Positions 1-59,008 of a stretch of 59,008 nucleotides of DNA are shown here, in pieces. The stretch spans positions 1 to 59,008 of the forward strand of contig CBDDTI010000352.1 of assembly GCA_965233585.1 (NCBI GenBank), written 5' to 3'. Each line of letters starts with the position of its first letter. The stretch's first letter is position 1. The stretch comes from a bacterium. GTDB lineage: Bacteria; SAR324; NAC60-12. A program made the translations under genes and the position numbers. The notes beneath the pieces are model-generated. The model had not been told where the DNA came from. It saw only the letters and a list, made by a program, of their open reading frames with translations, and made no database searches.

Positions 1-365
1 GCTTAGTCTGCGCCAAGCTTTTAAAAAGTAGAAGCCAACTAAGCTCCATCAGAATTGCCCTGAGTGTTCCTCTGGTTGCTGCCAGCTGATGGCTGCCCAA
101 GAACTTCCTTCTTATCCTCAGGTCCTGCCAGGGTGAAGACAGCTAAGAACAAGATAACCTAATTAATTATTTGGGTTGCAGAAGCAGCAATGAAGAATCC
201 CACCACATCAGCTGCATTTTTGTACTTGCAAGCTGCTTCTCAGACTTAGCTGATGCCACAAATTTAATGCCAGACTTAGCTGATTGATTATTTAGCTGCT
301 TAGCTGAGGTGATGCTTCAAAAAAACAACTGAGGCTTTTGCTCAGGCTGCAAACTCACTAATTAA

Positions 366-1410
366 TTAGTATGTTTCCAAATCAGGCTCAGTTGTGCCTT
401 CAGTTGTTGCATTACTCCTCTGAGGAAGCTGCCAAGGAGCATTCTGATGATCATTAGCAGCCTCGGGCTCCTGTCTCCTCTGAGTTGCATCACTCCCCTG
501 AGCAGCCTGAGCAACCTGCCAAGGAGCAGTCTTAAAAGAAGGTTTGGGTGGAGGCTCCTGTCTCTTCTGAGTTGCATCACTCCCCTGAGCAGCCTGAGCA
601 ACCTGCCAAGGAGCAGTCTTAAAAGAAGGTTTGGGTGGAGGCTCCTGGCTCTTCTGAGTAGCATCACTCCCCTGAGCAGCCTGAGCAACCTGCCAAGGAG
701 CAGTCTTCTTAGAAGGTTTGGGTGGAGGCATCTGATGATCATTGGCAGCCTCAGGCCCCTGGGCAGCCTGAGAAGGCATGGGGGCAAACACATAAGCCAA
801 AGAAGAAGGAGGAGCCTTGAAGACAGGAGCCTTAGACTGAGACTGCTTCATGTTCTGAAAGCTTTTCTTCTCCTCCATCTCAGTCAAAGCAGTGCTGATC
901 TTCTCCTTGGCCTGAGTGAGTTCCAACTGCATCTGAGCTAAGAGGAGTTGCTCATCTTGCATCTTCTTAGCATCCTCCAAGATCTTGAAAAGAGTAAACT
1001 CCTGAGCATCCATGCCATACTTCAGAGCCTCAAGCTTCTGAGTGATCTCATTGTGGATGTTCTCAAGGGAGCCTATTTCACTGAGATCTTCAGCCCCTTG
1101 CACCAGCTTGATGAAGTGATAGTATGCTCAGGGTCAATCACAGCATATTGGGATTTGTAGTACCCCTCAGATTTGCTGGCCTGAGCTTTTGGCCTAGCCT
1201 TGGCTGAAGGAGCTGACTTGAACAACTGATACAACTGAGAAGGCCCAGCAGATTTAGGAGGCTCAGCAGGCTCCAGTTTGTGCATGAACTGAGCACAATA
1301 GAAAGGCTCTGTGACAAACACCTGCCAGGGGAGTGGGCAAAGGTTGAGAATCATCTGGTAATACTGAGCAATGGTCTCCTTAGACCACCCATTGATATCC
1401 TGCAGGGTTG
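366..1410 (-). pseudogene. Module 1 coiled-coil protein (GW..YY..IL..PLPW..AQF family), frameshifted near 1115
   Basis: Split into ORFs 1073..1438 and 366..1103; intact in copy 36689..37765. Confidence 0.7.
430..770. repeat. 87-bp coding tandem repeat (29 aa, PPPKPSFKTAPWQVAQAAQGSDATQKRQE) x3; also near 30800-31140 and 36755-37095
   Basis: TGAGTTGCATCACTCC recurs at 481 and 568, with a variant at 655. Confidence 0.9.
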
Positions 1411-1513
1411 TAAGGGATGTGAAAAACCTATCAAACATACATTACAGTTTAGTGATGAATTAATTAATTATATGATTAGTTAATTGACTAGTAATCAAAT
1501 CATGCCCACATGC

Positions 1514-1807
1514 TCAGAAACACAAAGAACAAATGCATTCACACATGTTCAAACCCATGTCCTTGCAGAAGGTGCAGCCATTCTGAAATGGGATCCTGCT
1601 GAGCATCACCTTAGACCTGCAGTTAGGACACTGAACATAAGGCTCTTCATCATACCTTGGGTAATGTATGATCTCCTTAGGATCTGAGCCAGGACCAAAT
1701 AGATCCTCCACTGAGGGAAAACTTGATGAAGGCCTCAGTCTGATCACAATGTGAGGGCCTGCCATAGCCCAGCTTAAGCCATGTGGGACTGAGTGAGGTT
1801 TGTCCAT
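1514..1807 (-). CDS. Module 1 small Zn-ribbon-like protein (YPRY..EP...CxxC...LSRIPFQNGCxxC)
   Basis: Motif conserved in four paralogs; ATG in TCAGCCATGG context. Confidence 0.65.
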   Translation of the reverse strand: MDKPHSVPHGLSWAMAGPHIVIRLRPSSSFPSVEDLFGPGSDPKEIIHYPRYDEEPYVQCPNCRSKVMLSRIPFQNGCTFCKDMGLNMCECICSLCF

Positions 1808-1886
1808 GGCTGAGTTGCAGCTGAGTTGGGATTCAAATATGCTCACTATGGGCTTGAGTTCATTAAGCAGCTGAGCTATCACACAA

Positions 1887-2117
1887 TCATGCATTCCTGA
1901 ACAAAGCTGAGCACAAGTCCAAGACCATGAGCAAGCTTGGAACCAACCCCACACCACCAGAACCAACCCTGAGTCCTCTCTCAGCTTTGCCACCCTTCTG
2001 AGATGCATCCTTAGGGTTGAGCTTCAGGTAATCCACAACTTCTTTTGCTGAGAGACCATAATCTTCAATTGCCTGAAGAAAGACTTGTCTCTGCTCCTGA
2101 GAAAACTTTGGTGCCAT
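1887..2117 (-). CDS. Module 1 small helical protein (MAPKFSQEQR...) ending in the GxSGGVGLV motif
   Basis: TCAGCCATGG start; similar to the N-terminus of 45017..45556 and to the conserved GVSGGVGLV block of the other modules. Confidence 0.5.
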   Translation of the reverse strand: MAPKFSQEQRQVFLQAIEDYGLSAKEVVDYLKLNPKDASQKGGKAERGLRVGSGGVGLVPSLLMVLDLCSALFRNA

Positions 2118-2219
2118 GGCTGAGGAAGTGAACTGGCTAGCCTGAGAGCTTCTTAAACTTGGGATTGAGCCCTCACAAGCTGAGAAATGGACCCTTGCTG
2201 AGGTGAACACAAGAAAAAC

Positions 2220-2430
2220 CAATTGAAAATAATTAATTAACTTGAAGTCAACTGAAAATCCTTTGAAATCAATTGGAAGTAAATTGATTTAAATTGAACA
2301 TCAATTGGAACCAATTGGAAATCAGTTGAAAGTAATTGATTAATTAATTTAAAATCAATTGAAAATGCATTGAAATTCAACTTACTTCAATTGAAAATTC
2401 ATTGAAAGTAAATAGATATCAACTGAACAT
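2220..2430. repeat. Degenerate (AAATTGAAATCAATTG) satellite; also near 16090-16280, 32590-32790, 38550-38750, 52435-52620
   Basis: Related to the clean 21-bp satellite at 17970-18744. Confidence 0.75.
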
Positions 2431-2699
2431 AATTAATTAATTACTTATGTTTGTTTTGGTGGTCCACTATTGTGTTCAGCTACTTATTGAGGTCAATTGT
2501 CTTTAGAAACATTCCCTTTACCTTTTTCCTGTGCTAAAGTTTTTTCTTAGAATTATGTGTCAACCCAGACCATGTCACAGTTCCTTATCACTTTTTTTTG
2601 CTTACACTGAATGTCAAAGCTTTATTTGCTGAGATTTGTGCAGTTTGGCTCAGAACATAGTATATAGCACATAATGTTTTTCTAAGAGTTTGCTGAGAT

Positions 2700-4950
2700 C
2701 TAAACTAAGAATAATGCTCATGAGCCAGATTGAAAATGAATCTCAGCTGAGAGGAAGAGACAGGTAGCCTTGCTTAGAAGGCACCTGAGGAAATTGAAAA
2801 TTAATTACTGCTGAGAATTTTTTCTCAGCACTTGCAGATCCAAAGAACCACTCAAGTTCTTTCTCATGAGCATCTACCTGAGCTGCAGGCTACATCAAAT
2901 TTTAACAATGTCTTCAGTTGAAAAAATAATCATGTTCCAAAAACATTGATGGCCCAAAAGTAAAAAATACATTTTTCAATGAGCAACCTCAGTCTGAGTG
3001 TTCCAAGGTGGAAGTGCATCAGGAGGAGAAATGTCACTGAGGTCAATGGAGTCCAATACTGAGAATTTCTCAGCCTGAGAAGGAAATAATAAACACAACA
3101 TCACATGAACTAGTTAATCTAAAGACTATGTTGAAGTTGTTGCTTACCCCAATGCTCAAGTTAAAACAAACTAATTCAAGCTGAGCAATCTTGGTTTTCA
3201 GGCCATTTTGCCTGGTCAGAGCAGCTTGGTAATGCTGCTTAGCCATACTCCATCCTGAGGTGTGAGTAAGATTATGCTCTAAGTCAAACTCCTTGCGCAT
3301 AAAGACTGAGTCAAGCTCTGGGCGCATTGTGTTCTGCACCAGAAGCACCTCATGGCTGAGCTCTTGCTCAGATGCCTCAGTCTTGTAGATGGCCTGAGAT
3401 TGTTTGGCATCACAGCATGGTAAAAGATATTGCTGATCAGTTAAACTTAAGAAAGAACTAATGAAAAGTAAAATTGCAAATAGAAAAAATACCAACACAA
3501 AAAAAATGTCATTGATTAATTATCCTGAGTTGCTCTGAGAAAACGCTGATATTGCACCCCCTCCTGGATGCTGAGGATAGCTGTGCTGAGCAACAAATCC
3601 CATTCCATCTCTAAGTCCTCAGTTGCTGAAGCATTCTTGTTTCATTAATTACTAAGCACACAGATTTGATCTTAAACAAATCTATTAATTGATTAATTAA
3701 TTAATATAATTGATTAATTAGTTAATTCATTAATTAATTGCATTGAAAAAAACATAAAACTGACAGTGGCTTTAACCAAGACACCATGTTGGTATACTGA
3801 GAGACTCCTTTACTTCCACTCAGAAAGGACCACTTCTGAGTGTTTATGAACTCCAAATAGAGCTGAGATCCTCCAGCCTGGGGGCTGAAGTCATTGAAGT
3901 GCTGCTTGAGGTGTCTCAGGACATCCCATGGCCTCCCCTGAGAAAGGTCCACCCTGAGTTCCATTGATTGCAGCTTGGAGTTGCCATACTCAGATGAGGT
4001 CAAGTGTTCTTGACTGAGCTCCCACATCTCCTGGCTGGGTCAAATGAACCAACTAAAAAGGAATATGTTTTTTGAGATAATTCATTAATTAATATGGAAA
4101 GCATCAACCTTAGGCCATCATCTTTCTGACATATGCTCAAGTGCCACCAAGTTTCCTCCCTCAGGTTGCCTATCTGAGTGTCCAGTTTCTCAACTGAATT
4201 ACTGAACAGCTTCAGATCAGAGGATATCTCAAGCAAAGTCTTGAGGATGATGCTCAGGAGGATGATAGCTGAGCATATTCCCTTGGCATTGCAACCAAGA
4301 ACTTATCAAGAATGTGTCTAAAAATGATAGGAACCCAGTTATTTGCTTGGAGAAAGCTAGTGGAGAAACAAAAGTGTTTATTTACTTAAATCTTGCCCAA
4401 GATCCAGCTGAGAACTGGTCAAGAGTGGTTCCAACCCACTCAGCCTCTTGCTCAGATCAACTGAGTTCTGCAATGCAGGCTGCATGAGATGGAAAAAACA
4501 TATTTCCTCAATTAATTAATGAGGTTAACAAAAACCCATTCAATAGCCCAAGGTTTAAAACCAAAAAGCTGAGATGCAAGCTCAGATGCTGGCAATGCTT
4601 ATCCCTGAGCTCATCACCAAGGCCAAGAAAGCAAAGGTTTTGAGCTGAGTTGAAATAGCCATGCTGAGCCTTGGCTGACAAGATTAGAATTTAGCAACTG
4701 AAAACTGAAACAAGGTAATTAATTAAGTAATTAAATATACCACTTTTATACAGTAATTAATTGACAACCTCTATTTCATAGGAAAAACTTGATACAATAA
4801 ACAAATGCAACAAAAAACAAAACTTAAATTTCATTGACAATCTCAGGAACACAGTTGACAGGAGCTGAAGGAAGCTGAGGCTGCTCTGGGCACTGCTGAG
4901 CTTTGGATGCTGCTGTGCACACATGCAAGCTCTGAGGCAAAACATCAGGT
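2700..4950 (-). CDS. Probable multi-exon gene of unknown function (open blocks near 4100-4285, 3780-4030, 3170-3420)
   Basis: GC-richer open blocks separated by TAATTAAT-rich gaps with AG|G junctions; 5' part paralogous to 28440-29400; exon structure unresolved. Confidence 0.4.
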
Positions 4951-5098
4951 TTTTTTTAATTGTAATTACTTTCTTAGTTTCTTTCATTTGAAATTCCCAG
5001 AAATGCCCAATTTCCCAAACTATATAATGCCTTATTAAAACCCAATTTAAATACATCTCTCAAACAATTTTTCAAGGTGGTAGTCCATGAGCAACCCT

Positions 5099-6095
5099 GA
5101 TACACAATAGTGTGGTTTGTTTGAGGGTACACTATTGTGTCCAGCTGCTTCCTGAGGTCATGATTTTTAGATTTTTTCAATCAGTTCCTTTACCTTTTCC
5201 TTTGCTAGCTAAAGTTTTTTCCTTTTAATTAATTCCTTTCTTAGTTTCTTTCATTTGAAATTCTCAGAAATGCACAGTTTCCCAAAATATATGATGCCTT
5301 ATTAAAACCCAATTAAAAAACATCACTCAGACAATTTTTCAAAGGGGTAGTCCATGAGCAAGCCTGATACACAATAGTGTGGTTTGTTTGAGGGTACACT
5401 ATTGTGTCCAGCTGCTTCCTGAGGTTATGTGTTTTTTTTTGAACCAGTTCCTTTCCCTTTTCCTTTGTTAAAGTTTGTTTCCCTTTTACTTAGCCTCATC
5501 CTTCTTGGAATCAAAACCAAAGGCTTTCCAAAGGATTAGTTTCAGCCAACCAAAAAAAGACATGAATGATCCTGATACACAATAGTATGGTTTGTTTGAG
5601 GGTACACTATTGTGTCCAGCTGCTTCCTGAGGTGACTTTGTTTTTTACCATTCCCTTTACCTTTTCCTTTGCTAAAGTTTTTTCCTTTTAATTAATTCCT
5701 TCTTAATTAGTTTCTTTCATTTGAAATTCCCAGAAATGCTCAATTTCCCAAAATTTATGATGCCTTATTAAAACGAAATTAAAAAACATCACCCAGACAA
5801 TTTTTCAAGGGGGTAGTCCATGAGCAACCCTGATACACAATAGTATGGTTTGTTTGGGGGTACACTATTGTGTCCAGCTGCTTCCTGATGTGTTTTTTTT
5901 CAACCATTTCCTTTCCCTTTTCCTTTGCTAAAGTTTTTTCCTTTTAATTACTTAGCTTCATTCTTCTTGGAATCAAAACCAAAGGCTTTCCAAAGGATTA
6001 GTTTCAGCTAACCAAACAAACACATGAACGATCATGATACACAATAGTATGGTTTGTTTGAGGGTACACTATTGTGTCCAACTGCTTCCTGAGGT
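5099..6095. repeat. Array of 5 hairpin repeats GATACACAATAGTRTGGTTTGTTTGAGGGTACACTATTGTGTCCAGCTGCTTCCTGAGG
   Basis: Constant ~58-bp core with 12-bp stem ACACAATAGTGT/ACACTATTGTGT, separated by two types of T-rich linker. Confidence 0.9.
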
Positions 6096-6732
6096 GATTT
6101 TGTTTTTAAACATTCCCTTTACCTTTTCCTTTGCTAAAGCTGTCTTCCTTTTAATTTCAGTAATTACTTTCTTAGTTTCATTTGAAATTTTCAAAAATTC
6201 TCAGTTAGTTAATTATATAATTAATTAATTATAGCAATTGTTGGTTCCTTCTGCTGAGCTCAACCTTAGTCATTGGAAGTTTACCCAATCCCATCACTTT
6301 CCCAAACTTCTTTTTGGCCATGCATTTTGCTCATAGTGCTTTGCTGAGGCATACTGAGCCTTGCTCAGGACAAAGTTGAAAAAACCATTGAAGCTGGCTG
6401 AGGTAGAACATGATGTAGATCATGCTGAGATCCTGTCAGGGACAAAATGCTGAAAGCAAAACATTCAACTGTCTGGCACTAATTAATCTCATTGCATATT
6501 GTTCATTGAATAATTACTCAAAAAAAGTAAGTAACTACACATCATTGTGTGTTAAACAAATTGACTATGCAGTCAAATGCATCCAACAATTAACATACTT
6601 AATTACTGTAGAAGCCCTCCACATCCCTTCAGAGCTGCACACTTTTTTCCTTAGCTTGAAGCTGCATGGATTGCTTGTGATAGCAAATTTTAAAAAAAGA
6701 CACTGAGATTTTACTCAGTGATGCTGATGCTT

Positions 6733-7461
6733 TCAGTCAGCTGCCTTGCTCTTATCAGAATCCTCCTCAGCATCTTCTTGGTGCTCACTGCTCTTAGAAG
6801 GCTGAGAATCTCCCTGAGTTTGCTTTTGTTTCTCCTCCAAAAATTCAAGAATCTGAGCATCAGTGAGTTTAAGGGCTTTTCTGATGGCTTCAAATTGGAT
6901 GGTAGCTTCCTCCAAATTTTTCTGATCCTCAGATTGGATGCTGCTGCTTCCTGAGCTATTCTTCTTCTCTTCCTCTTTCTGAGCCATGCTTTTGATGAGC
7001 TTGTGCTTAGCATCTTCAAACTGGATCTTAGTCTCATGCCACTGATTCATGAGGTCCTCCATGAGCTCAATGTCTTTCCTGAGCTTGTTCACAGTTGCAT
7101 GCTGAGCATCCTCAGCTGCAGTGATAGTTTGGCTGAGCAAGATGAAGTCCTCATGGTAATCACTGAGAGCCAACCAATTTCCAGTCTTCTCAGCTTTGGC
7201 CACCTCCTCCTTCAAGACATCTATCTGCCTCTGAGCATCATTCTTCTGTATCTCATTGATGCAGAAGGTTTCCATCCAAGGGCTGAGGTCTGAGGTTGAA
7301 GAAGCAGCAGGAGATGGTTTCTCAGGCCTGGCCTCCTGTGCCATGAACTGAGCAACACCAAACTCTGCTTCCACTGAGTTGGCCCATGGCAAAGGATTCA
7401 TGCTGAGGATATTGCTGTAGTAGGCCTGAATCACATACTTAGGCCACCCAACTGAGTCCTG
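6733..7461 (-). CDS. Module 2 coiled-coil protein exon (GWPKYVIQAYYSNILSMNPLPW...)
   Basis: 233-aa ORF paralogous to modules 1, 3 and 4; begins after a CAG|G acceptor-like site. Confidence 0.65.
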   Translation of the reverse strand, partial: QDSVGWPKYVIQAYYSNILSMNPLPWANSVEAEFGVAQFMAQEARPEKPSPAASSTSDLSPWMETFCINEIQKNDAQRQIDVLKEEVAKAEKTGNWLALSDYHEDFILLSQTITAAEDAQHATVNKLRKDIELMEDLMNQWHETKIQFEDAKHKLIKSMAQKEEEKKNSSGSSSIQSEDQKNLEEATIQFEAIRKALKLTDAQILEFLEEKQKQTQGDSQPSKSSEHQEDAEEDSDKSKAAD

Positions 7462-7649
7462 ACTGCCAACTGCTTTGAATGAAACAACAAAGTAAACTGT
7501 AATTGATTGTAATTATCAAGTAATTAACCAAGTATTTTTTTAAATTAATTGACTAATATGTGTATATAATTGGTGGTTTTAATTGTCACTGAGGTACTTT
7601 TTGACTTCCTGAACACTCAACAAATATTGAAAATAAACATGAAATGATG

Positions 7650-8303
7650 CTAAGCCAACCCAGGATCATGACATTCTCTGCAGCTAGATTGCCATGGGAT
7701 CCTGCTGAGCATCACCTTGTGGCCTCTTGGACATTCGAAGTTTGGCTCTCTGAGGTACCTGGGGTAGATCACAATGTCTTCCTCAGTATGGTGACCCTCT
7801 TCCCCAAAGATTTCTGGCAGCTTGATCTCAGGAGGCTCATCAGGAACAAGCTGAGCATGTCTTGGACCACCCTCACAAGTGAATCTCATGTTAGCTGGGA
7901 TGGTGTCTAAGACTTTGCTGTAAACTGAGGGGCCTTTTCTGCCCTTCATAGCTTTGCCTTCTGGAATCATTGATCCTAAGATGGGGTCTCTGCTGGAGAA
8001 GGCTTGGGCATGGATTCTGCCTGTTTCTGAGCCCTGGCCTTTGCCCCAGCTTGTGCTATAGCCTGGGTCTTTGCCATGGCCTCTGCCTTTGCCTGAGTCT
8101 TTGCCATAGCCTTTGTCTTTTCCTGAGTCTTTGCCATAGCCATAGTCTTTGCCTTTGTCTTTGCCTGAGTCTTTGCCTTTGCCTGAGTCTTTGCCAAAGC
8201 CTTTGCCATAATAGCCTTGGTCTTTGCCTGAGTCTTTGCTCCACCATTTGCCTGAGCCTTTGCCCCTAGGCAAAATCAAGCCAGCTTCATCTGGGCCACC
8301 CAT
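7650..8303 (-). CDS. Module 2 Zn-ribbon-like protein with N-terminal GKDSGKG repeats
   Basis: YPRYLREPNFECPRGHKVMLSRIPWQSSCREC; CAAGCCATGG start; G/K-rich repeat at about 8030-8270. Confidence 0.7.
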   Translation of the reverse strand: MGGPDEAGLILPRGKGSGKWWSKDSGKDQGYYGKGFGKDSGKGKDSGKDKGKDYGYGKDSGKDKGYGKDSGKGRGHGKDPGYSTSWGKGQGSETGRIHAQAFSSRDPILGSMIPEGKAMKGRKGPSVYSKVLDTIPANMRFTCEGGPRHAQLVPDEPPEIKLPEIFGEEGHHTEEDIVIYPRYLREPNFECPRGHKVMLSRIPWQSSCRECHDPGLA

Positions 8304-8679
8304 GGCTTGCAAGAAGTGCAGCTGAGTTGGTAGAAATCACACTGAGATCAAAGCAGCTGAGGAATCACATAGACATGCATAATTCAACACCATGCAAGCA
8401 AAATATCTAGTTGACTAATTCATTTAATTAATTATATATATATATAATTAATGAGTCAATAAATATATAATTATTGAATATGATCCATGTGCAAGTAACC
8501 ACATAGACATGCGCATATAAAAATGCTACAACTTCATTGGTTAATTAATTAATTAACCAATTAGTTAGCTAATTAGCAAATTATTTGATGTCAACATTAC
8601 TGATAAAACTTGCCAAAAGTCTAAGATTATGGCCAAGCTGAGCACTAATCCCACACCACCAGAAACACCCTTCAGTCCT

Positions 8680-9219
8680 CTAGGCATCTCCAGTCTTGGC
8701 CTTCTTGGACTTGGGCTCAGCATCTGAGGATGGATCTGATGCTGAATCATCATCCTGCTGAGAGTCACCAAAGACCTGAGAGTCATCATCCTACTGAGAG
8801 TCACCAAAGACCTGAGAGTCATCAGCATGCTGAGAGTCCTCAGTGACCTGCTGGGGCATCCTGCTGAGCACTTTGTCCCTGATCTCAGCAAGCTCCTCCT
8901 TGATCACATCAGCCCTGAGCTTCTCAAAGTTCTGGCAATGCTGGACCCACTGATGCTGCCTGAGCTCCACAAGTGCCAGCATGTTGATCAGCTCAGCCTT
9001 GCACTTGATGAGGTTGATTCCATTTCCCTGAGACTGTCCTCTGAGGCAGGCATGCACCTTGTGCAGCTCATCAAGGGAAGACCTGAGGTCCTGATGCTCC
9101 CCCATGTCGATCTCATGCCTACTGAGGAAGATAAGAGCATCCTGAGGTGTAATGCCAAGATCTGAGATGAACTTAAGGAGCTTTCCCTCTTCCTGAGTAG
9201 TAAGCTTCCCCATTGCCAT
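8680..9219 (-). pseudogene. Module 2 helical protein with acidic SQ-repeat tail and KKAK NLS-like end; premature TAG at 8791-8793
   Basis: Intact (CAG) in copy 45017..45556. Confidence 0.6.
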
Positions 9220-9604
9220 GGCTGAACAAGTTAGTGCAGTGGAACTGAGCAAAGGTTCTACTGGCTGTGTTTGATCCTTCACAAGCTCAAAAATGAACCT
9301 GAACCATTGCAAAGAAACTGAGAGGTTGCATACAAGCTCAATCTAAGCCATAACTCATGACACCAAATCAAAGTTGAACATATTGTGATTAATTAATGAA
9401 CAGTTAGTTATAGAAATGGTTGGTTCCTTCAGCTGAGTTCAACCTTAGTCATTGAAACCTTACCCAGACCCACCACTTTCCCAAACATTTTCTGGCAATG
9501 CCTTTTGCTGATAGTGCTATGCTGATGCATACTGAGCCTTGCTCAGGACAAAGTTGGAAACAACTGAGAAGCTAGCTGAGGTAGAAGATGATGTAGCTCA
9601 CATT

Positions 9605-9651
9605 CTGAGGTTCTACTTCATAGTGAGTCTCACTATGAAGTAGAACCTCAG
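9605..9651. repeat. Perfect 47-bp palindrome (23-bp arms, 1-nt centre); second copy 45942-45988
   Basis: CTGAGGTTCTACTTCATAGTGAG-T-CTCACTATGAAGTAGAACCTCAG. Confidence 0.95.
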
Positions 9652-10040
9652 TGCCTTGGCTTCTCCTTCTCCTCAGCACTGAAGATGCTCACAACTAAGA
9701 AGGATGATGTAGTCACCAGGTACTCCACTTGCTCAGGATGCTGATGTCCTGTCAGGGACAAAAAGCTGAGAGCAAAGCATACAACTCTTTGACACTAATC
9801 TCAGTGTATAGTGTTCATTGAATAATTAATCAGATAAATAAGTCTCTACCCATCAATGTGTCAAACAAATTGACTATGCAATCAAATACTTCCAACAATT
9901 AACATGCAGAAGAAGCCCTCCACATCCCTTCAGATCTGCACACTTTTTTCCTTCATTCAAGCTGCATGGATTGCTTCTGAAAGCAAATTTAAAAAGGACA
10001 CTGAGATTTCACTCAGTGATGTTCCATCTGCCTGAGGCAG

Positions 10041-10769
10041 CTACTCATCCTCATCATTCTGAGATTTTTGTTTCTTAGGTGGAGGGCTGAGCAAATAGAG
10101 AACCCTCTGCCTTGAGATTGGCAGCTTCTCTATGAAATCTTCAATTTCCTGAGTCATGAAAGCATCCTGAGCCTCCTGAGCCTCCCTCTCAGCTTTTTCA
10201 GCCTCCTGCTGAGCCTCCTCCTCAGCTAGTACTGCATCTTTCATTAAAAGCATGTTCTCATGGGTTCCTTGGAAAGCAATGATGTTGTTTGAAATCTCCT
10301 GAGACACATCTTCCATCAAGCTGAGATCCTTTTTCAGTCTGGCCACAGTCCTTTCCTGCATTTTCTGAGCTTTTTCCATCAATTCTATGCATTCTTTGAG
10401 CTCATCCATGTGAACTAACAGGTCCTCCAGAGGTTGATCATTCATGGAAGCATCTGAGAGAAGCAAAGCCATTGCTGAGCACCTACCCTCAGGATCCATC
10501 TGCTGGAGCTGGTTGAAGTAGTATGCTTCACCACTAGGACACTCACTGGCCTGAGGTGGATCAGCTGGCCTTGCCTTAGGCATCACTGGTGTGCCTAGAG
10601 GCTCAGGAGGACGCTGAGAAGATGAAGGCCTAGAAGCAGAAGGATCACCTTCCATGAACTGAGCCTTACCATAATCTGCCTTCACTGACTTAGCCCATGG
10701 CAATGGATCCATGCTGAGAATCCTGGTGTAGTACCACTGGATCACCCACTGAGGCCATCCATCTGAGCC
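10041..10769 (-). CDS. Module 3 coiled-coil protein exon (GWPQWVIQWYYTRILSMDPLPW...), ends PPPKKQK
   Basis: 234-aa ORF with the paralog motif conserved. Confidence 0.65.
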   Translation of the reverse strand, partial: GSDGWPQWVIQWYYTRILSMDPLPWAKSVKADYGKAQFMEGDPSASRPSSSQRPPEPLGTPVMPKARPADPPQASECPSGEAYYFNQLQQMDPEGRCSAMALLLSDASMNDQPLEDLLVHMDELKECIELMEKAQKMQERTVARLKKDLSLMEDVSQEISNNIIAFQGTHENMLLMKDAVLAEEEAQQEAEKAEREAQEAQDAFMTQEIEDFIEKLPISRQRVLYLLSPPPKKQKSQNDEDE

Positions 10770-11017
10770 CTCAATGCAAGCTGCTTTGAATGAAACAAAA
10801 AAAGTAGACTGTAATTGATCAATTAATTCATGATGTTACCAAGTAATGAATTGCTCAATTAATTAATTAATTGGCTAATTAATTAATTAATTATATGATT
10901 AATGTTGTTTGCTTTGTTTTGAACTGTCACTGAGGTACTTGTAATTAGCAGTAATACTTTAGTTCAAAGCACATAAAAATCAGGAACAAAAAACAGGTAA
11001 ACAAAAATAACATTATT

Positions 11018-14489: not shown

Positions 14490-14559
14490 TGCAGGGTTGC
14501 AAATGGTGTCCATGAAAAAATGACAACTATATCAGTTAATTAATGCTCATTGTCCTATG

Positions 14560-48209: not shown

Positions 48210-49410
48210 GATACAAAATAGTATGGTTTGTTTGGGGGTACACTATTGTGTCCAGCTGCTTCCTGATGTTTTTTTTAACATTCTCTTTGCCTTTTCCTTT
48301 GCTATTATTTTTTATTTTCTCAATTAGTTTCTTTTATTTACAATTCTCAGAAATGCTCAATTTCTCAAAATATATTATGCCTTATTAAAATCCAAAAAAC
48401 ATGACTCAAACAATTTTTCAAGAGGGTAGTCCATGAGCAACCCTGATACACAATAGTATGGTTTGTTTGAGGGTACACTATTGTGTCCAGCTGCTTCCTG
48501 AGGTGATTTTGTTTTTTTAACATTCCCTTTACATTTTCCTTTGCTAAAGTTTATGTCTTTTATTTTCTCAATTACTTTCTTGTATTTAGAATTCTCAGAA
48601 ATGCCTAATTTCCCAAAATATATGATGCCTTATTAAAACCCAATTAAAAACATCACTCAAACAATTTTTCAAGGGGGTAGTCCATGAGCAACCCTGATAC
48701 ACAATAGTATGGTTTGTTTGAGGGTACACTATTGTGTCCAGCTGCTTCCTGAGGTTATATTTTTTTAAGCATTTCCTTTCCCTTTTCCTTTACTAAAGTT
48801 TGTTTCCTTTTACTTAGCTTCATTCTTCTTGGAATCAAAACCAAAGGCTTTCCAAAGGATGAGTTTCAGCCAACCAAAAAAAACATGAATGATCCTGATA
48901 CACAATAGTATGGTTTGTTTGAGGGTACACTATTGTGTCCAGCTGCCTCCTGAGGTGATTTTGTTTTTTTAACATTCCCTTTACATTTTCCTTTGCTAAA
49001 GTTTATGTCTTTTATTTTCTCAATTACTTTCTTGTATTTAGAATTCTCAGAAATGCCTAATTTCCCAAAATATATGATGCCTTATTAAAACCCAATTAAA
49101 AACATCACCCAAACAATTTTTCAAGGGGGTAGTCCATGAGCAACCCTGATACACAATAGTATGGTTTGTTTGAGGGTACACTATTGTGCCCAGCTGCTTC
49201 CTGAGGTTATATTTTTTTTCAAGCATTTCCTTTCCCTTTTCCTTTACTAAAGTTTGTTTCCTTTTACTTAGCTTCATTCTTCTTGGAATCAAAACCAAAG
49301 GCTTTCCAAAGGATCAGTTTTAGCCAAGCAAAACAAACATGAATGATCCTGATACACAATAGTATGGTTTGTTTGAGGGTACACTATTGTGTCCAGCTTC
49401 TTCCTGAGGT
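48210..49410. repeat. Array of 6 hairpin repeats
   Basis: Copy of 11875-13075. Confidence 0.9.
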
Positions 49411-50085
49411 GAAAAAAACAATCATCCATCCAAGTAATTATTTTAAAGAATATCAAATCTAAATTGATTCACATCTGCTAAATTCAATCTTAGTCCATGC
49501 TGCTAAGTTCAATCTCAGTAATTAATTAATTATCTTAGTGCTTGCAACTCTACCCAACCCCATCACTTTCCCAGCCATCTTTTGCCAGTGTGTCCTGCTG
49601 ATAGTCACATGCTGAGACATTCAAAAATCATTAAGCCTTGCTTAGCTCAATGTTAAAAAAATCACTCAAGCTTGCTGAAGACCTTAATGCTGAGTGAGGT
49701 AGGCAGAATGCTGAGGTCCTGTCAGGGACAAGAAACTGATAGCAAAACTGAAAGACCCATTATTTGACACTAAACTCAGTGATGTTAATGTCCAACATTA
49801 CCCATTACTTATGCTAAAGTAATCAATTAATTAACTAAATAATTGATTAATTATTAATTAATTCATTAATTAGTTAAGTAATTAACTAATTAATTAATTA
49901 ATTAATTATTCTAAACTGCAACAACAACCAGCAGCAGTGGCAAAACCACCCACATCACTTCAGAGGTGCACTCATTTTTTTCTGCCAGCTAAGTAATTCT
50001 TCACAATGCCTCTGGTATAATTACTCAGGAAGTGACTGCTTCTAATTAACTATATATCTGCTCAGCAGACTTGCACCTGAGTTAA

Positions 50086-50818
50086 TTATACATCCACAAC
50101 TTCCTTCACTGAGTCCTGAGGCTTGTGATCAATCTGAGGAGATTTTTGCATCAGCTGTTTGACATCTAGTTCACTCATTTGATGAGTTTCCATGAACTTT
50201 CTCAGAGCTTCCTTATTCACAAGATCCTGAGACAGCTTCTGCTCCCAGTACAACTGAGCTCTTTTCACATTCAGTTGAAGCTCAGCATGCAAAGCCCTGA
50301 GCTCACCTTGCTTATCTTCCATTTACTTAGCATCTTTCCTGAGCCTAAGCATTGTGAGCTCCTGAGATTCAAGTGCCTGCTCAAGTAGAAGAATCTTGGA
50401 CTTCATGTCCTCAATCAGGTCAGGTACATTGTCCAAGTCACTGAGCTTCTGATCTGATTCTGAGTTGTCCAGGAGCTTGTCAATCTCATTGATGTTCAGC
50501 TTTTGGAGCTCAGACTTGACATAGCCCTGAGCATCATTGGCAGTCCTGATAGGCTGAGGCTTCCAAACTGAGCTTCTCTGCATATTTGATAAAGCAGCAT
50601 CTAGCACATCGAAGGGCTGATGAGGTCTGCCTGAGCCCTTCCCTGTTGATGAAGAAGCAGTTGCTGCTGAGAATCCAGCTGGTGCATCAGGCTCAGGAGG
50701 CTTGAACTGAGCTTGTCTGAACTGAGGAGCTACAAATGCACCCCAAGGCAATGGGTCCATTCTGAGCACCTCAGTGTAATATCTTTGAACCACTTCCTGA
50801 GACCAGCCATTGTGTTCC
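50086..50818 (-). pseudogene. Module 4 coiled-coil protein copy 2 with premature TAA at 50323-50325
   Basis: AAA in copy 13757..14464, TAA here. Confidence 0.65.
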
Positions 50819-50888
50819 TGCAGGGTTGCAAATGGTGTCCATGAAAAAATGACAACTATATCAGTTAATTAATGCTCCTTGTCCTATG

Positions 50889-51242
50889 CTAAAACACACA
50901 CACCAACAAAAAAAAATTCATCCATTTGTTCAACCCAGGCACATGGCATTCTCTACATCCTGATTGCCAGGGAATTCTGCTGAGGAAGACTGTGTGGCCA
51001 TTGCCACAGTCAACCTTAGGCTCCCTAAGGTATCTAGGATACTCCACAATGTTTTCTGAGTCCAAGTTGTTGAAGAGTGCTAAGCATGAGGGTTCCTGAG
51101 GTGGATCATTGGACTGAAGCTGGTAGCGCCCTTGGCCACCCCTCTGAGTCCACAAAACTCCATCTGGCACCTCAGCAGGCTTCTCTTCAAACATAGGATG
51201 AGGTTTGCCTGAGCCTCTCCCATGATAGTCAAAGAAAGACAT
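50889..51242 (-). CDS. Module 4 Zn-ribbon-like protein copy 2
   Basis: Near-identical to 14560..14913. Confidence 0.7.
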   Translation of the reverse strand: MSFFDYHGRGSGKPHPMFEEKPAEVPDGVLWTQRGGQGRYQLQSNDPPQEPSCLALFNNLDSENIVEYPRYLREPKVDCGNGHTVFLSRIPWQSGCRECHVPGLNKWMNFFLLVCVF

Positions 51243-51518
51243 GGCTGAGATGATATGGAGCAAAGGTTGATTAGTCCTTGCCCTTAGATTTGAGCCTTAA
51301 AAAGCTGAGGAATCACATAGACATGCACAAATATGAACATGCTACAACTTCATTGGTTAATTAATTAGCTAATTACTCAATTATAAGAAACTTAAACATG
51401 CATAAGCATGCTAATTAATTAATTAATTGATTAATTAATTAATCACAATTGCCAAAAGTCTAAGATTATGTCCAAGCTGAGCACTAATCCCACACCACCA
51501 GAAACACCCTTCAGTCCT

Positions 51519-52346
51519 CTAGGGCTCTTCAGTCTTGGCCTTCTTGGACTTGGGCTCAGCATCTGAGGATGGATCTGATGCTGAATCATCACTGCTCATA
51601 GGCTGAGAGTCTAAGACCTGAGAATCATCAGCCAGCTCCTGGGACCCAAAGGGTGTATCTGATGGTGCTTCATCATCACTCCCCATAGGCTGAGAGTCTA
51701 AGACCTGAGAGTCCTTAGCCACCTCCATCACCTCATGGTCAGGCTGTGCATTCAACTCCTTTTCCATATCCTGAAACTTGCTGAGGGTAGCATCAAATGT
51801 ATCAGGTTTAGCAGGTTGGGCAGGCTGAGGAAGAGGGATACACTCTGATGGCCAACCATCCTGAGCATCCTGAAGAGCTGTCTTGAGAATCCTAATCCAT
51901 TGCCCCTGAGTGATCTTTGGGTAACCCTTGAAGTCTTTGAAGATCTGACTGAGTTCATTCCTGAAACTGAGCATCACCCAATCAGGCACAGCATCAGGAT
52001 CCTCAAGCTGAACCAACTGCTGAGTGTAGTACTTCTGCAGCATGTCCACAAACTGTTCCTGAGAGCACCTGAGCTTCACCTTGATGTCAGCCATCTCAGC
52101 TGTCAGAGCCACCACCTTCATGGAGTTGCTTAAAGAACCACCCAAAAATAAAACTCATTGCTAATTAACCATTTCACTAATTAATTAATGGATTTCCCAT
52201 TGGGAAACAAAAAAACAAATCCAAGCCTTAGGGCTCAAAGAGAATTTCTCCAGAGTCAGGATATTCCTGAGGTTGGAAAACCATTCCACAAGATGATAAT
52301 TGTAGTCCTTCCTGAGCTTGTCCATCTCAGTGTTGAATTGCTCCAT
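51519..52346 (-). CDS. Module 4 probable two-exon helical/acidic protein, intact copy
   Basis: Exon 1 MEQFNTEM.. (TCAGCCATGG), AT-rich gap near 52140-52235, then a 208-aa open frame ending PKSKKAKTEEP. Confidence 0.55.
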
Positions 52347-52679
52347 GGCTGAGCTGATGGGATGCAAAGAAGCTGGCTAGAATGGGCTTGAGCCTTCACA
52401 AGCAAAGAAATAAATCCTCCCATGTGAGATGAAAATTGATTGAAATCAAATGAAAAGCAATTCCTTGTTAATTAATAAAGTTGAAATCAATTCAAAGTAA
52501 AGTGAAAATCAATTGAAAAACAATTTAATTAAACAAATTGAAAATCAACCGAAATTAATTTGAAATTATTTGAAATCAATTGAACATCAGTTGAAATGAA
52601 TTGAAATCAATTGAAATCAAAACCAAAGGCTTTCCAAAGGATGAGTTTCAGCCAAGCAAAAAAAACATGAATGATCATA

Positions 52680-55154
52680 ATACACAATAGTATGGTTTGT
52701 TTGAGGGTACACTATTGTGTCCAGCTGCTTCCTGAGGTTATGTTTTTTTTTCAAGCATTTCCTTTCCCTTTTCATTTACTAAAGTTTGTTTCCTTTTACT
52801 TAGCTTCATCCTTCTTGGAATCAAAACCAAAGGCTTTCCAAAGGATCAGTTTTAGCCAAGCAAAAAAAACATGAATGATCCTGATACACAATAGTATGGT
52901 TTGTTTGAGGGTACACTATTGTGTCCAGCTGCTTCCTGAGGTGATTTTGTTTTTTAACATTCCCTTTACATTTTCCTTTGCTAAAGTTTGTTTCCTCTTA
53001 CTTAGCTTCATTTTTCTTGGAATCAAAACCAAAGGCTTTCTAAAGGATTAGTTTCAGCCAAGCAAAAAAAACATGAATGATCATGATACACAATAGTATG
53101 GTTTGTTTGAGGGTACACTATTGTGTCCAGCTGCTTCCTGAGGTGATTTTGTTTTTTTAACATTCCCTTTGCATTTTCCTTTGCTAAAGCTTTTTTTATT
53201 TTCTCAATTAGTTTCTTTTATTTAGAATTCTCAGAAATGCACAATTTCCCAAAATATTTAATGCCTTATTAAAACCCAATTAAAAAACATGACTCCAACA
53301 ATTTTTCAAGGGGGTAGTCCATGAGCAACCCTGATACACAATAGTGTGGTTTGTTTGGGGGTACACTATTGTGTCCAGCTGCTTCCTGAGGTGATTGTTT
53401 TTTTTCAACCATTTCCTTTTCTTTTTCCTTTGCTAAAGTTTGTTTCCTTTTACTTAGCTTCATTTTTCTTGGATTCAAAACCAAAGGCTTTCCAAAGGAT
53501 TAGTTTCAGCCAAGCAAAAAAAACTTGAATGATCATGATACACAATAGTATGGTTTGTTTGAGGGTACACTATTGTGTCCAGCTGCTTCCTGAGGTGATT
53601 TTGTTTTTTTAACATTCCCTCTACATTTTCCTTTGCTAAAGCTTTTTTTATTTTCTCAATTACTTTCTTTTATTTAGAATTCTCAGAAATGCCTAATTTC
53701 CCAAAATATTGATGCCTTATTAAAACCCAATTAAAAACATCACTCAAACAATTTTTCAAGGGGGTAGTCCATGAGCAACCCTGATACACAATAGTATGGT
53801 TTGTTTGAGGGTACACTATTGTGTCCAAGGTTATATTTTTTTTAAGCATTTCCTTTCCCTTTTCCTTTACTAAAGTTTGTTTCCTTTTACTTCATTTTTC
53901 TTGGATTCAAAACCAAAGGCTTTCCAAAGGATTAGTTTCAGCCAAGCAAAAAAACTTGAATGATCATGATACCAATTGTGTCCAGCTGCTTCCTGAGGTT
54001 ATATTTTTTTTAAGCATTTCCTTTCCCTTTTCCTTTACTAAAGTTTCCTTTTACTTAGCTTCATTTTTCTTTTCAAAACCAAAGGCTTTCAAAGGATTAG
54101 TTTCAGCCAAGTGAATGATCATGATACACAATAGTATGGTTTGTTTGAGGGTACACTATTGTGCCCAGCTGCTTCCAAGCAAAAAATCCTTCATGAATTT
54201 CCAAAGGATCAGTTTTGCAAAAAATACACAATAGTATGGTTTGTTTGAGGGTACACTATTGTGTCCAGCTGCTTCCTGAGGTGATTTTGTTTTTTTAACA
54301 TTCCCTTTGCATTTTCCTTTGCTAAAGCTTTTTTTATTTTCTCAATTAGTTTCTTTTATTTAGAATTCTCAGAAATGCACAATTTCCCAAAATATTTAAT
54401 GCCTTATTAAAACCCAATTAAAAAACATGACTCCAACAATTTTTCAAGGGGGTAGTCCATGAGCAACCCTGATACACAATAGTGTGGTTTGTTTGGGGGT
54501 ACACTATTGTGTCCAGCTGCTTCCTGAGGTGATTGTTTTTTTTCAACCATTTCCTTTTCTTTTTCCTTTGCTAAAGTTTGTTTCCTTTTACTTAGCTTCA
54601 TTTTTCTTGGATTCAAAACCAAAGGCTTTCCAAAGGATTAGTTTCAGCCAAGCAAAAAAAACTTGAATGATCATGATACACAATAGTATGGTTTGTTTGA
54701 GGGTACACTATTGTGTCCAGCTGCTTCCTGAGGTGATTTTGTTTTTTTAACATTCCCTCTACATTTTCCTTTGCTAAAGCTTTTTTTATTTTCTCAATTA
54801 GTTTCTTTTATTTAGAATTCTCAGAAATGCACAATTTCCCAAAATATATGATGCCTTATTAAAACCCAATTAAAAAACATGACTCAAACAATTTTTCAAG
54901 GTGGTAGTCCATGAGCAACCTTGATACACAATAGTGTGGTTTGTTTGGGGGTACACTATTGTGTCCAGCTGCTTCCTGAGGTTATGTTTTTTTTCAACCA
55001 TTTCCTTTTCCTTTTCCTTTGCTAAAGTTTGTTTCCTCTTACTTAGCTTCATTTTTCTTGGAATCAAAACCAAAGGCTTTCCAAAGGATTAGTTTCAGCC
55101 AAGCAAAAAAAACATGAATGATCATGATACACAATAGTATGGTTTGTTTGGTTT
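52680..55154. repeat. Expanded array of about 12-13 hairpin repeats, partly scrambled, last unit truncated
   Basis: Copy of 16340-17955 plus extra and deleted units at 53780-54240. Confidence 0.88.
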
Positions 55155-57039
55155 GTTCTGGTGATGACAGTGTCACCTACTTTGAAGCTCTCAGTTTGGA
55201 GCCAAGTGCCTGAGTCTGAGATGTTGCTCAGTCTGGCCCATTGCCCTGGCACAACTAAGAGGCCTTTGCCCACTGAGCCAATAATCTCCTTATCCTCAGA
55301 AGCATAGACATTGTGCAGGAGCTGTCTTGCCTCATAGGTGATCCTGTATCTATCCTCCCCTGAGATTCCAATGAGAGTGGTGGATCCTGGCTGAGGCAAA
55401 GCTGGCTTGGCTGCTGGTGCTGAGGGCTGACTTGAGCTCGCTGCACCTTGCTGGGTGCTGGCTTCTGCATCTTGCTGAGGGCTGGCTGGTACAATTTGCT
55501 CAGCATCTTCTGGAGATTGGCTTGGTGGAGCTGAGTCAAAGCTGGCCTTCTTCACCAGAGAATCTTTCTCAGAAAACTTGGAGGGAGAACCACTGTCTGC
55601 TGATGCAAAGCTGAGCTGCCTCACTACTGACCCCTTGGGAGATGACTGAGATGACTCAAAGGTCAGCTGTTGTTTTGCCTTAGCCTTAGGTGCTGGTACC
55701 AATTGCTCAACAAGCATGTCAGGCCCACCAGCTGAGTGCATGACCTCCTTGATGGCTTCCCTAACTGAAGAAAATTCTTTGACATCATCAGATTTATGAA
55801 GCTCCTCCTGGGCAAAGACAGCTCTCCTCCCTGTAGCTTTGGCCCACAAGGGCACCTGGTCTGAGAAGCCAATGACCAGTTGATGCCTTGCTGAGATGAA
55901 CTGCACTGGGCCGCTGACCCTTTTGCTCTCAGCTAAGACCTGCTGAGATGCAAGTGTGCTCAGCCACAGGCTGTGGTCAAACTCCTGCCATGTCAGCTTA
56001 GTTCTGGTCTCAGCTTCAGTGGCTGAAATGTTGGTCACCAGCTCAGTGGCCATATACTTAGCATCAAGCCATGAAACAAGTCTGAAAGCAGTTATTTTCC
56101 TATATCCAAGATTTTCAAGCAACTTAGTCTTCCTCTCCTCTCTCTCTCTGTGCTATCTTTGAGCAACTCAGCTCTTTGCAAGGCAGTGATGTCCTTGTTT
56201 GATGCTTTGTTTCTGAGCTCATTTGCTGTGAGCTGCAGTCTGGCCATGTACTCAGCCATCAGATCCTGCTTAGAGATAGTGTTGCCACAAGCTCTTTCAA
56301 GACTGAGCCATTGCTTCATACTTGAGAGGATATCTGGGAAAGCAAGTTTTCTTCCACCTCCCTGAGCCCTCTTTCTCTTAGATTTCTCTTGTTTTCTGAG
56401 GTTCTTGAGCTTGCTCTGAGACACAAGTTGCTTGTATGACTCATGGTTTGCCAGCATGTGGCTGAATTGCTTTTTGGTGATGCCATACTTGCTGCTCTGA
56501 GCCTTCCAAAAATCCTCAAGCTTAGTGAACCTGGGCTTGTCTGCAAGCATCTCCTCACAGTACTTCACCTTTGTCTCAGCTGAGATTTCTGCTCTTTTGG
56601 TGGCTGAGCCTGGCTTCTTCCTGTTGGTACCTGATGAGCTGGCTTGTGGAGACTGCTGAGGTTCCCTCCTTACAAGCCTGGCTGTTTTCTTAGCTATCTC
56701 TATGAGTTCTGAATCTCTCTCAGCTTTTTGAGCCTTCAGCTCAGCATTTTCTCTCAGCAATTCATTCCTTTCCCTCATGGCATCCTGCTGAAATCTGCTG
56801 AGCCTTTGCCTTTTCTGAGGTACCAGTTCTTCTGACACTGGCTTCTCAGCACCTCTCTTCTGGCTTCCTGAGCCAAAAAACTTGCCAAGACCAGACTGCA
56901 ACCTCCCTGAGCTGGGTGGTGAAGACTCAGGGCTGCCAGTAGAGCCCTTCTGAGGTGTAGATTCAGCTCCTCCACCTCTAGCTCCGAGCTGCTTCTTCAC
57001 CTTAGTTGAATACAATGTTGAGGCAAATCCCCAAGACAT
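55155..57039 (-). pseudogene. 3'-truncated second copy of the transposase gene (HTH and first catalytic D only)
   Basis: Near-identical to 26510-28396; breaks at 55155 into a hairpin-repeat loop; (GA)n frameshift near 56140. Confidence 0.88.
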
Positions 57040-58188
57040 GTATTAAAACCTAATTTCAAAACAGCTGAGAACTCAGTTTTTTCTAAGTGTTTTTGACTGA
57101 GTTCCCACATCTCCTGGCTTGGCCAAATGAAGAATCAAAAAATCTTAGGTAATTAATTAATTAATATGGAAAGCATCAACCTTAGGCCATCATATCTATG
57201 ACACATGCTCAAGTGCCATCAAGTTTCTTCTCTGAGGATGCCCAGCTGAGTGTTCACTTTGGAGACTGAGCCACTGAAGACATTCTTGAGCTGAGCTGAT
57301 TTGGAAAGGAAGATCTTGATGATGTAGCCCAACAAGATCATGGCTGAGAACCAGCCCTTGGCATTGCAATCAACAATGAATTAATTAACTAATTAATTAT
57401 ATAATTATATAAGTGTACAATTGTACAGTTATATGCTTAGAGGAAGCTAGTGGAGAAACAAAAGTGTTTACTTACTTAAATCTTGCCTAAGATCCAGCTG
57501 AGCACTGTTGAAGAATTGTTCCAGAGCATTGAGCCTCTTGCTCAGATCCACTGAGTTACAGCCTGCAATGCAGGCTGCATGAGATGGAAAAAACATATTT
57601 CCTCAATTAATTAATTAGGTAAACAAAAGCCCATTCAATAGCCCAAGGTTTAAAACCAAAAAGCTGAGATGCAAGCTCAGATGCTGGCCATGCTGATCCC
57701 TGAGCTCATCACCAAGGCCAAGAAAGCAAAGGTTTTGAGCTGAGATGAAATAGCCATGCTGAGCCTTGGCTGACAAGATTTGAATTAATCAACTAAGCAA
57801 CTGAGAACTGAAACAATGTAATTAACTAAGTAATTAAATATCCCACTTTTATATAGTAATTAATTAATTGACAACTTCTATTTCATAGGAAAAACTTGAG
57901 ACAATAAAAAACAAAATTGGATACAAAAACCAAAACTTGATTTCATTCACAATCTCAGGAACTTCCAGTTGAAATAAGCTGATAGAGGAATAGTCGCTGC
58001 TGAGCTCTGGATGCTGCTGTGCACACATGCAAGCTCAGAACCAAAACATCAAACTTTGCTGAAAGTGCTTTGCTGAGAAATAATTATTCAATTTCCCAAA
58101 TGTATATAATTATATAATTATATAAAATTATATAATATCTTGCAAAAAAACAAAACAACTTTTCAAGAGGTAGTCCATGAGCAACCCT

Positions 58189-58740
58189 GATACACAATAG
58201 TATGGTTTGTTTGGGGGTGCACTATTGTGTCCAGCTGCTTCCTGAGGTTATTTTTTTCAACCATGTCCTTTACCTTATCCTTTAACTACTAAACTTTTTC
58301 TTTTACTTTTCTATTTTTCTTATAATTCTCAGAAATGACCAGTTTCCCAAAATATATGATGCCTTATTAAAACCCAATTAAAAACATCACTCAAACAATT
58401 TTTCAAGGGGGTAGTCCATGAGCAACCCTGATACACAATAGTGTGGTTTGTTTGAGGGTACACTATTGTGTCCAGCTGCTTCCTGAGGTTATGTTTTTTT
58501 CAACCATTTCCTTTTCCTTTTCCTTTGCTAAAGTTTGTTTCTTCTATTTTCTCAATTAGTTTCTTTTATTTAGAATTCTCAGAAATGCCAAATTTCCCAA
58601 AATATATGATGCCTTATTAAAACCCAATTAAAAAATATCACTCAGACAATTTTTCAAGGGGGTAGTCCATCAGCAACCCTGATACACAATAGTGTGGTTT
58701 GTTTGAGGGTACACTATTGTGTCCAGCTGCTTCCTGAGTT
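58189..58740. repeat. Array of 3 hairpin repeats
   Basis: Copy of 29555-30110. Confidence 0.9.
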
Positions 58741-59008
58741 GATTTTTTGTTGCATTCCCTGTACCTTTTCCTTTGCTAAGATTTTTTTTTTGCTGTTTGA
58801 GTTTGAGTTTCTTTCATGTAAAATGCTCAGAAATGCTCAATTTCTTAAAACATATGGTGCCTTATTTAATCCCAATTAAAAAACAGCATCCAACTCAGTG
58901 ATTGCAGCCAGCTTCAATCTCCTTTTTCATCCAATGCCTCTAAGATCTGATGCTGTTGAGGAGCTGAGACATGATGAGAATTCAAAGTAGCTGATGATTG
59001 CTTAGTCT

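Follow-up and report, generated by a model that had tools for sequence, protein, structure and literature searches.

DNA transposons of the pogo/Tigger/Fot1 type, which belong to the Tc1/mariner group and carry a DDE_1 transposase, are elements of a few kb with one gene. The DNA analysed here, the 59,008 nucleotides of contig CBDDTI010000352.1 in GenBank assembly GCA_965233585.1 (hereafter the window), is that of a Symbiodiniaceae-type (coral-symbiont-type) dinoflagellate and contains about 2.3 tandem copies of one ~28-kb unit, which an earlier sequence-only reading had taken for a giant, cargo-carrying pogo-type transposon. The unit resembles pogo/Tigger/Fot1 elements in its short 26-bp terminal inverted repeats (TIRs) with a TA at each end, and its large protein resembles their transposases in a helical N-terminal part whose best, sub-threshold fold match is the CENP-B DNA-binding domain, in a putatively RNase-H-like core whose conserved Asp residues include a final pair spaced by 35 residues, and in having DDE_1 proteins as nearest language-model neighbours. 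It departs from them in that Pfam detects neither DDE_1 nor a helix-turn-helix (HTH) family, in a low-confidence segment of ~150 residues, in a C-terminal Ulp1 protease, and in the sheer size and content of the unit, which at 28 kb holds at least five genes and is nearly free of CpG dinucleotides. We consider a giant gene-carrying element that ends at the inverted repeats to be the single most likely explanation of this unit, although it is unproven and we adopt it tentatively.

Fusions of a transposase to a Ulp1 protease domain, a combination also proposed for the large protein described here, have been published for Ginger1 and Mutator elements, whose cores are Gypsy-integrase-like or MuDR-like in the passages available from that source (PMC2836005); here Pfam finds no match to an integrase (rve) family. 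Ginger1 elements are described in the same passages as having 40–270-bp TIRs, 4-bp duplications of CCGG/CCGT and lengths of 2.6–7 kb (PMC2836005). In its length of tens of kb and in the extra genes between its ends, the unit is comparable to Teratorn and the Starships. The Starships are found in fungi and use tyrosine recombinases. Teratorn, in fish, is a fusion of a piggyBac element and a herpesvirus, and the available portion of the review of giant transposons in which it is treated contains no mention of mariner, Tc1 or pogo (PMC6431247). Within dinoflagellates, a likeness exists to the unidirectional tandem gene arrays, with which the window shares same-strand genes and head-to-tail duplicates at 99% identity, but from which it differs in its extreme CpG deficit and in an edge marked by an inverted repeat and a TA. 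SymbioLINE-Dnmt of Symbiodinium is likewise a repeat family with fewer CG sites than the whole genome; however, as far as the available passages describe it, it is a retrotransposon with a methyltransferase, and no such domain was found here (PMC5890265). We found no paper on a giant pogo element in dinoflagellates, nor on a transposase–Ulp1 fusion in pogo elements or in dinoflagellates, bioRxiv supplements and subscription journals being outside the scope of that search.

Inverted repeats and the break in composition

The two copies of the inverted repeat, at 18836–18861 on the plus strand and at 21257–21282 on the minus strand, enclose 2.4 kb, and the first matches the reverse complement of the second at 25 of 26 positions, just as the sequence-only reading had reported. 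They form the only such pair in the window, and their arms face away from the long DNA; in the earlier model the left copy is accordingly the right end of the unit and the right copy its left end. At up to 3 mismatches the 26-mer occurs at these two sites of the window only (0 expected, 100 shuffles), and at up to 7 mismatches one more degenerate direct copy is found, at 18794–18819 with 5 mismatches. The repeat has no match in a prokaryote genome collection, as expected for a eukaryote. A TA adjoins both repeats on the side toward the intervening 2.4 kb (18862–63 and 21255–56), and with the TA included the inverted repeat measures 28 bp with 27 of 28 positions matching. Because TA is its own reverse complement and in this way extends the repeat to 28 bp, it is not distinguishable by itself from a target duplication. 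Ends of the piggyBac (TTAA) and the Ginger-like (TGTNR plus 4 bp) kinds were rejected by eye, as the flanks do not fit. The window holds no empty site, and the left outer flank is unique in it.

Base composition breaks at these repeats. Over the 56.6 kb outside them (1–18835 and 21283–59008) the observed/expected CpG ratio is 0.02, with 56 CpGs and an excess of TpG and CpA; over the 2.4 kb between them (18862–21256) it is 0.75, and this short segment accounts for 79 of the 135 CpGs in the window. The CpGs nearest to the repeat edges lie at 18781 and 18884 around the left copy and at 21168 and 22384 around the right one. The large gene uses 87 AGR codons for Arg vs 1 CGN codon, and its homolog L001, taken from a different assembly, likewise has a low CpG ratio, 0.063. 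It may be added that in all genes outside the repeats Arg is encoded almost only by AGA/AGG. According to the available passages on Symbiodinium, its CG sites are methylated by default, and fewer CGs than in the whole genome are described for one retrotransposon family only (PMC5890265); its transcriptomes show little codon bias (effective number of codons, Nc, 48–54), with CGC among the GC-rich codons, in the passages available from a second source (PMC5450531). On the basis of both sets of passages the host genome is probably not CpG-free, a baseline that comes from literature passages and not from host DNA.

The segment between the repeats has a structure of its own. It starts with the TA and the tail of a 16-bp minisatellite (1.7 units, 18862–18894) and ends with ~21 units of the same minisatellite, the last one cut to its head, and a TA (20917–21256). 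Each unit of the minisatellite contains one TA, and when the outer DNA and one TA are removed, the minisatellite unit is restored. The last 8 bp of the left part (18887–18894) recur at 20909–20916 and nowhere else in the window, and the two copies of this 8-mer flank a non-repetitive, CpG-normal stretch of 2014 bp (18895–20908), which we interpret as having inserted later, inside the minisatellite, with duplication of 8 bp; the inner segment before that insertion is 373 bp of pure minisatellite. The nested insertion holds ~600 bp of a dispersed repeat (19171–19770) that is also present on other contigs (4 matches among 16 candidates, in related junk open reading frames, ORFs). A hAT identity of the insertion was considered but not adopted, since the 8-bp duplication is present and inverted ends are absent.

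On their outer sides the repeats adjoin satellite-like DNA. A 15-nt motif is present in the window in 53 exact copies, all on the plus strand (for example at 5128, 12140, 17677, 21283, 23717 and 54952), and most of them form the right arm of a 12-bp-stem hairpin, within satellite units that otherwise differ by 10–20%. The motif may serve in recombination or be bound by a protein. Each repeat has three motif copies on its outer side within ~100 bp. Adjoining the left repeat there are two motif-like copies (18765 and 18799) together with a loop-like G-run (18765–18835, plus strand), and the region outside the right repeat (21283–21812) contains two perfect copies (21283 and 21342), an AT-rich minisatellite (21405–21705) and a small palindrome. 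Homology to the satellite core moreover crosses the outer edge of the right repeat (21268–21298), with a score reached by none of 500 shuffles. The CpG break, the TA ends that restore the minisatellite, the satellite homology at the right edge and the outer motif clusters favour a geometry in which the long DNA ends at the repeats and the 2.4 kb between them is outside DNA, and the putative relative of TA-type transposases found 2.6 kb inside the unit also counts for it.

The large gene and its protein

The large gene runs on the minus strand from 28399 to 23845 and corresponds to a protein of ~1500 aa with an HTH-like helical N-terminal part, an RNase-H-like, pogo-like core, an Ulp1/SENP-type protease and a Cys-rich tail. 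It is a pseudogene, interrupted by a frameshift in an (AG)n run (27497–27501) and by an in-frame TAG (26041–26043), both on the minus strand, and no intact transposase ORF was found, the frameshift being common to both copies (56131–56134 in the second) and the second copy being truncated. Homologs are uninterrupted at both broken places, with Trp at the TAG and a continuous frame at the (AG)n slip. A sequencing error might in principle account for the slip, which lies in a dinucleotide run, but is less likely for the stop codon. Reassignment of TAG in the manner of ciliates was rejected, since the homologs have Trp there.

The C-terminal 731 aa gave a confident model with a mean predicted local distance difference test (pLDDT) score of 74.7, and the model has 52 PDB matches at E ≤ 0.001, including XopD (2.4e-7), NEDP1, SENP1/2/5/7 and Ulp1. 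Pfam PF02902 (Peptidase_C48) is detected in 3 of 30 long relatives, in 2 of them above the cut-off, and the alignment consensus of the protease reads HW..L, DSL and CG, in the order His-Asp-Cys. The C-terminus is thus clearly predicted to have an Ulp1/SENP-type (clan CE, Peptidase_C48) protease fold. For the front part, the AlphaFold model of the homolog P0020 is mediocre (mean pLDDT 60.1); its best Foldseek matches, both above E 0.01, are the Mos1 transposase (E 0.042) and residues 1–129 of CENP-B (1hlv_A, E 0.16, prob 0.92), and retroviral integrase cores, RuvC and SETMAR come next. Three Asp residues (D134, D429 and D465) are at least 90% conserved, the last two with 35 residues between them, and in the P0020 model a segment of ~150 residues, mostly with pLDDT <50, lies between the strands at 257–267 and 423–432. 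The nearest named language-model clusters to the protein core all carry DDE_1, with scores of 0.86–0.89 that serve as a lead only. As modelled, the front part is plausibly but weakly identified as a divergent Tc1/mariner-pogo-like enzyme that lies outside Pfam DDE_1. The CENP-B HTH and DDxD transposase announced by the sequence-only reading survives in this form, as weak Mos1 and CENP-B fold matches and DDE_1 neighbours, but the protein has no Pfam match of that kind and the gene is dead.

A word-indexed search returned 72 relatives of the large gene, the named ones from Symbiodinium natans and Fugacium kawagutii, and a profile built from the window ORF and 33 of these 72 matches, chosen for coverage, retrieved 1350 representative clusters at E ≤ 1e-3 and 260 at E ≤ 1e-30. 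Against L001, the ratio of nonsynonymous to synonymous substitution rates (dN/dS) is 0.27 over 430 codons, with dS near saturation, which indicates at the sequence level that the family is under purifying selection. L001 itself is a family fragment on a 1541-bp contig that was assigned to a bacterial bin and carries no flanking DNA; it is the sole relative in the prokaryote collection and probably a mis-binned fragment of a eukaryotic gene family. One long relative, P0144, has N-terminal WD40 repeats, which reflect either a genuine fusion or gene models that were merged. Two further observations concern the surroundings and the tail of the large gene. Its upstream region (28442–29408) and that of module A (4002–4947) are ~82% identical and may contain a common promoter or leader region. 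A motif W-Q-S-G-C-x-x-C is common to the Cys-rich tail (~24050–24090) and the zinc-ribbon-like exon of the module genes (~14610–14650), both on the minus strand (BLASTP over 12 aa, E 0.004 for a single comparison).

Tandem copies and their junctions

Read from its first position, the window consists of module A, modules B1–B3, satellites, the left repeat, the 2.4-kb segment and the right repeat, followed by satellites, the large gene with its upstream region, module A, module A again, B1–B3, satellites and a truncated copy of the large gene. Comparison of the window with itself by BLAST aligns 1–17657 with 36316–53976 at 99.0% identity, 30368–35858 with 1–5481 at 99.2% and 55155–59008 with 26510–30376 at 99.5%. 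Because module A is duplicated, position 1 matches both 30368 and 36316, of which the sequence-only reading had named the former alone. An extra tandem copy of module A thus occupies 30368–36315, with a period of ~5.95 kb, and is followed by the second copy of modules A and B1–B3 with their satellites (36316–53976), by an expanded satellite (53976–55154) and by a third copy that comprises the 3'-truncated large gene and its upstream region (55155–59008); the gene-bearing parts are all on the minus strand, as are all credible genes of the window. At the second unit junction, ~55150, the DNA passes from the loop of a satellite hairpin, with 4 nt of filler, straight into the middle of the transposase-like gene, half of which is absent there along with both repeats. 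The satellites are the end points both of the module A duplication and of the 8.8-kb deletion at this junction. With head-to-tail copies, identities of 99.0–99.5% and junctions in repeats, the arrangement has the features of a tandem segmental duplication.

Weighing the explanations

If the unit is a giant element, the following course of events may be proposed. A nearly CpG-free unit of ~28 kb, ending at the 26-bp repeats, would sit at a TA in a CpG-normal 16-bp minisatellite, and this target would later have taken the 2-kb nested insertion. Its cargo would consist of the decayed gene for a pogo-like transposase with an Ulp1-type protease, four old paralogs and hairpin-bearing satellites. The transposase would come from an intact family copy located elsewhere, bind both to the terminal repeats and to the internal motif related to them, and integrate the unit at TA; the copies in the window would stem from unequal crossing-over and not from separate jumps, with the hairpin satellites driving the duplication and deletion of modules. 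The analysis establishes the anatomy of the window, its composition break, the protease fold and the decay of the gene; transposase activity, movement as a 28-kb block and the way in which the tandem copies arose are inferences. A broader claim can be built on this course, namely that the Symbiodiniaceae harbour a family of ~28-kb, nearly CpG-free, TA-inserting elements with 26-bp repeats, a pogo-like–Ulp1 transposase, a four-gene family of their own and satellites derived from their ends, and that the near absence of CpG would make them invisible to the default CG methylation of the host; taken as a whole, we regard this broader claim as doubtful.

A number of results weigh against a giant element. 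The arithmetic by which the sequence-only reading arrived at 28 kb (9.1 + 18.9) is right, but the unit is a stitch of two partial copies; the window has no contiguous TIR-to-TIR element of 28 kb, the copy starting at 21257 meets no right repeat within the 37.7 kb of window that it spans, and at ~55150 the equivalent of 17673–26509, both repeats included, is missing. The copies are adjacent and share their flanks, and tandem duplication is required under either geometry; copies with the same flanks had been named beforehand as the mark of a plain segmental duplication, and adjacent tandem duplicates are what the window contains. The palindromic TA may belong to the inverted repeat itself, which would then measure 28 bp. 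On its outer side the left repeat shows only the 12-nt loop-like match (5 of 500 shuffles), and its resemblance to the satellite arm is not significant (166 of 500 shuffles). As for the protein, its gene is dead in the window; Pfam DDE_1 (PF03184), HTH_Tnp_Tc5 and CENP-B_N were detected in none of 3 window pieces and none of 34 homologs (4 homologs scanned at E ≤ 10 and 30 at E ≤ 0.01, with E ≤ 10 used for 7 of the proteins), a PDB sequence-profile search with the family alignment A1 gave no match, and the front part of P0020 has no fold match at E ≤ 0.001. The host CpG baseline is drawn from literature rather than host DNA, and the unit is far larger than what such elements usually move, the efficacy of DNA transposition falling markedly above ~6 kb of cargo, as stated in the available portion of PMC6431247. 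The proposal of a giant pogo element keeps the CpG break, the restored minisatellite and the right-edge homology on its side, but it has to do so with no contiguous copy and a second junction that is devoid of the repeats.

It is a serious and only slightly less likely possibility that the long DNA is instead a resident tandem gene array, either of the host or selfish but not repeat-bounded, and that the repeats face inward and bound a small cassette, 26 + 373 + 26 = 425 bp before the nested insertion, which landed in, or replaced the body of, a satellite unit at a unit junction; there would then be no giant transposon. Such a cassette is the sole contiguous repeat-bounded object in the window, and its outer flanks look like a single satellite core split in two, the left one bearing the loop-like G-run and the right one a perfect 15-mer arm; the other rearrangement junction (~55150) likewise breaks in a hairpin loop. 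The one-strand genes and the head-to-tail units at 99% identity are as in dinoflagellate arrays, the extra module A copy shows satellite-mediated unequal exchange, and a young insert would account for the normal CpG content between the repeats. The same outer flanks, however, carry no target duplication (left CC, right TA, with no match of 2–8 bp), homology runs without a break from the right repeat into the outer DNA, chance (roughly 1 in 16) would have to explain why the minisatellite ends in phase at a TA on both sides, and an array with this extreme loss of CpG would be unlike host genes as they are described in the available literature passages.

The repeats might also not be transposon ends at all, and have arisen by hairpin-mediated breakage and inverted duplication in the satellites, with capture of foreign DNA. 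Satellite cores do form hairpins, the deletion junction lies in a hairpin loop and has a 4-nt filler, and the repeat and the satellite arms have a 12-nt core pattern in common; yet 12-bp arms do not account for a 26-bp repeat that has one mismatch and, in its innermost 9 nt, no relation to the satellites, and this origin, which we consider improbable, would leave unexplained both the TA ends and the restoration of a minisatellite unit. Less probable still is that the unit is some other integrated mobile element, for example a virus-like one with the DDE protein as integrase and the protease for maturation. The joint presence of a cysteine protease, a DDE enzyme and several unknown genes, the foreign-looking composition and the integrase cores among the fold matches would suit an element of this kind, but Pfam detects no polymerase, capsid or packaging family in the 23 window ORFs, and the four extra genes form one paralogous family.

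Module genes, satellites and other features

The four modules contain paralogs of one multi-exon gene that has no Pfam family, with 30–64% aa identity among them. Module A (1–4948, minus strand) comprises paralog 1 (~366–2288) and further ORFs at 3070–4302, as delimited by ORFs and a tblastn map of the paralogs. It is followed by a palindrome-bearing satellite array (4949–6206), seen in the self-comparison, with invariant 15-mer copies at 5128–6065, by modules B1 and B2 with paralogs 2 and 3 (6209–11820, minus strand), by a second satellite array (11822–13076) recognized from the self-comparison and the 15-mer map, and by module B3 with paralog 4 (13077–16085, minus strand). The module gene has 21 matches, including one cluster with 153 members, and the named ones are unnamed proteins of Cladocopium goreaui, 77–92% identical to the B3 paralog. 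A near-perfect palindrome of 47 nt stands at the start of module B2 (9605–9651, with a copy at 45942–45988; –23.8 kcal/mol, z –9.8).

To the right of B3 lie a satellite array with units of 202/452 bp, each with a 12-bp-stem hairpin core (16272–17965; –10.6 kcal/mol, z –2.6), and a 21-bp minisatellite (17973–18745). Coiled-coil Pfam matches at 18172–18744 were rejected as translated 21-bp minisatellite. Beyond the right repeat, a 269-bp satellite of 7 units (21813–23744) precedes the large gene, and a 251-bp satellite (29519–30253) separates its upstream region from the extra copy of module A. Pfam scans of the 23 window ORFs and NCBIfam scans of 6 proteins returned no relevant family, and Rfam and tRNA scans of the window returned no match.

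Significance

If the ~28-kb unit of this coral-symbiont-type dinoflagellate does move as a block, as the giant-element explanation proposes, the Tc1/mariner-pogo group would gain its first giant gene-carrying element, and, because the protein family has 1350 representative clusters, such elements would be a major undescribed component of coral-symbiont genomes. Even without mobility, there is a large family of pogo-like enzymes fused to an Ulp1 protease that is unknown to Pfam. The near-zero CpG content offers a simple marker that could segment dinoflagellate genomes into DNA of this kind and the rest, and the transposon question is therefore directly testable on any assembly.

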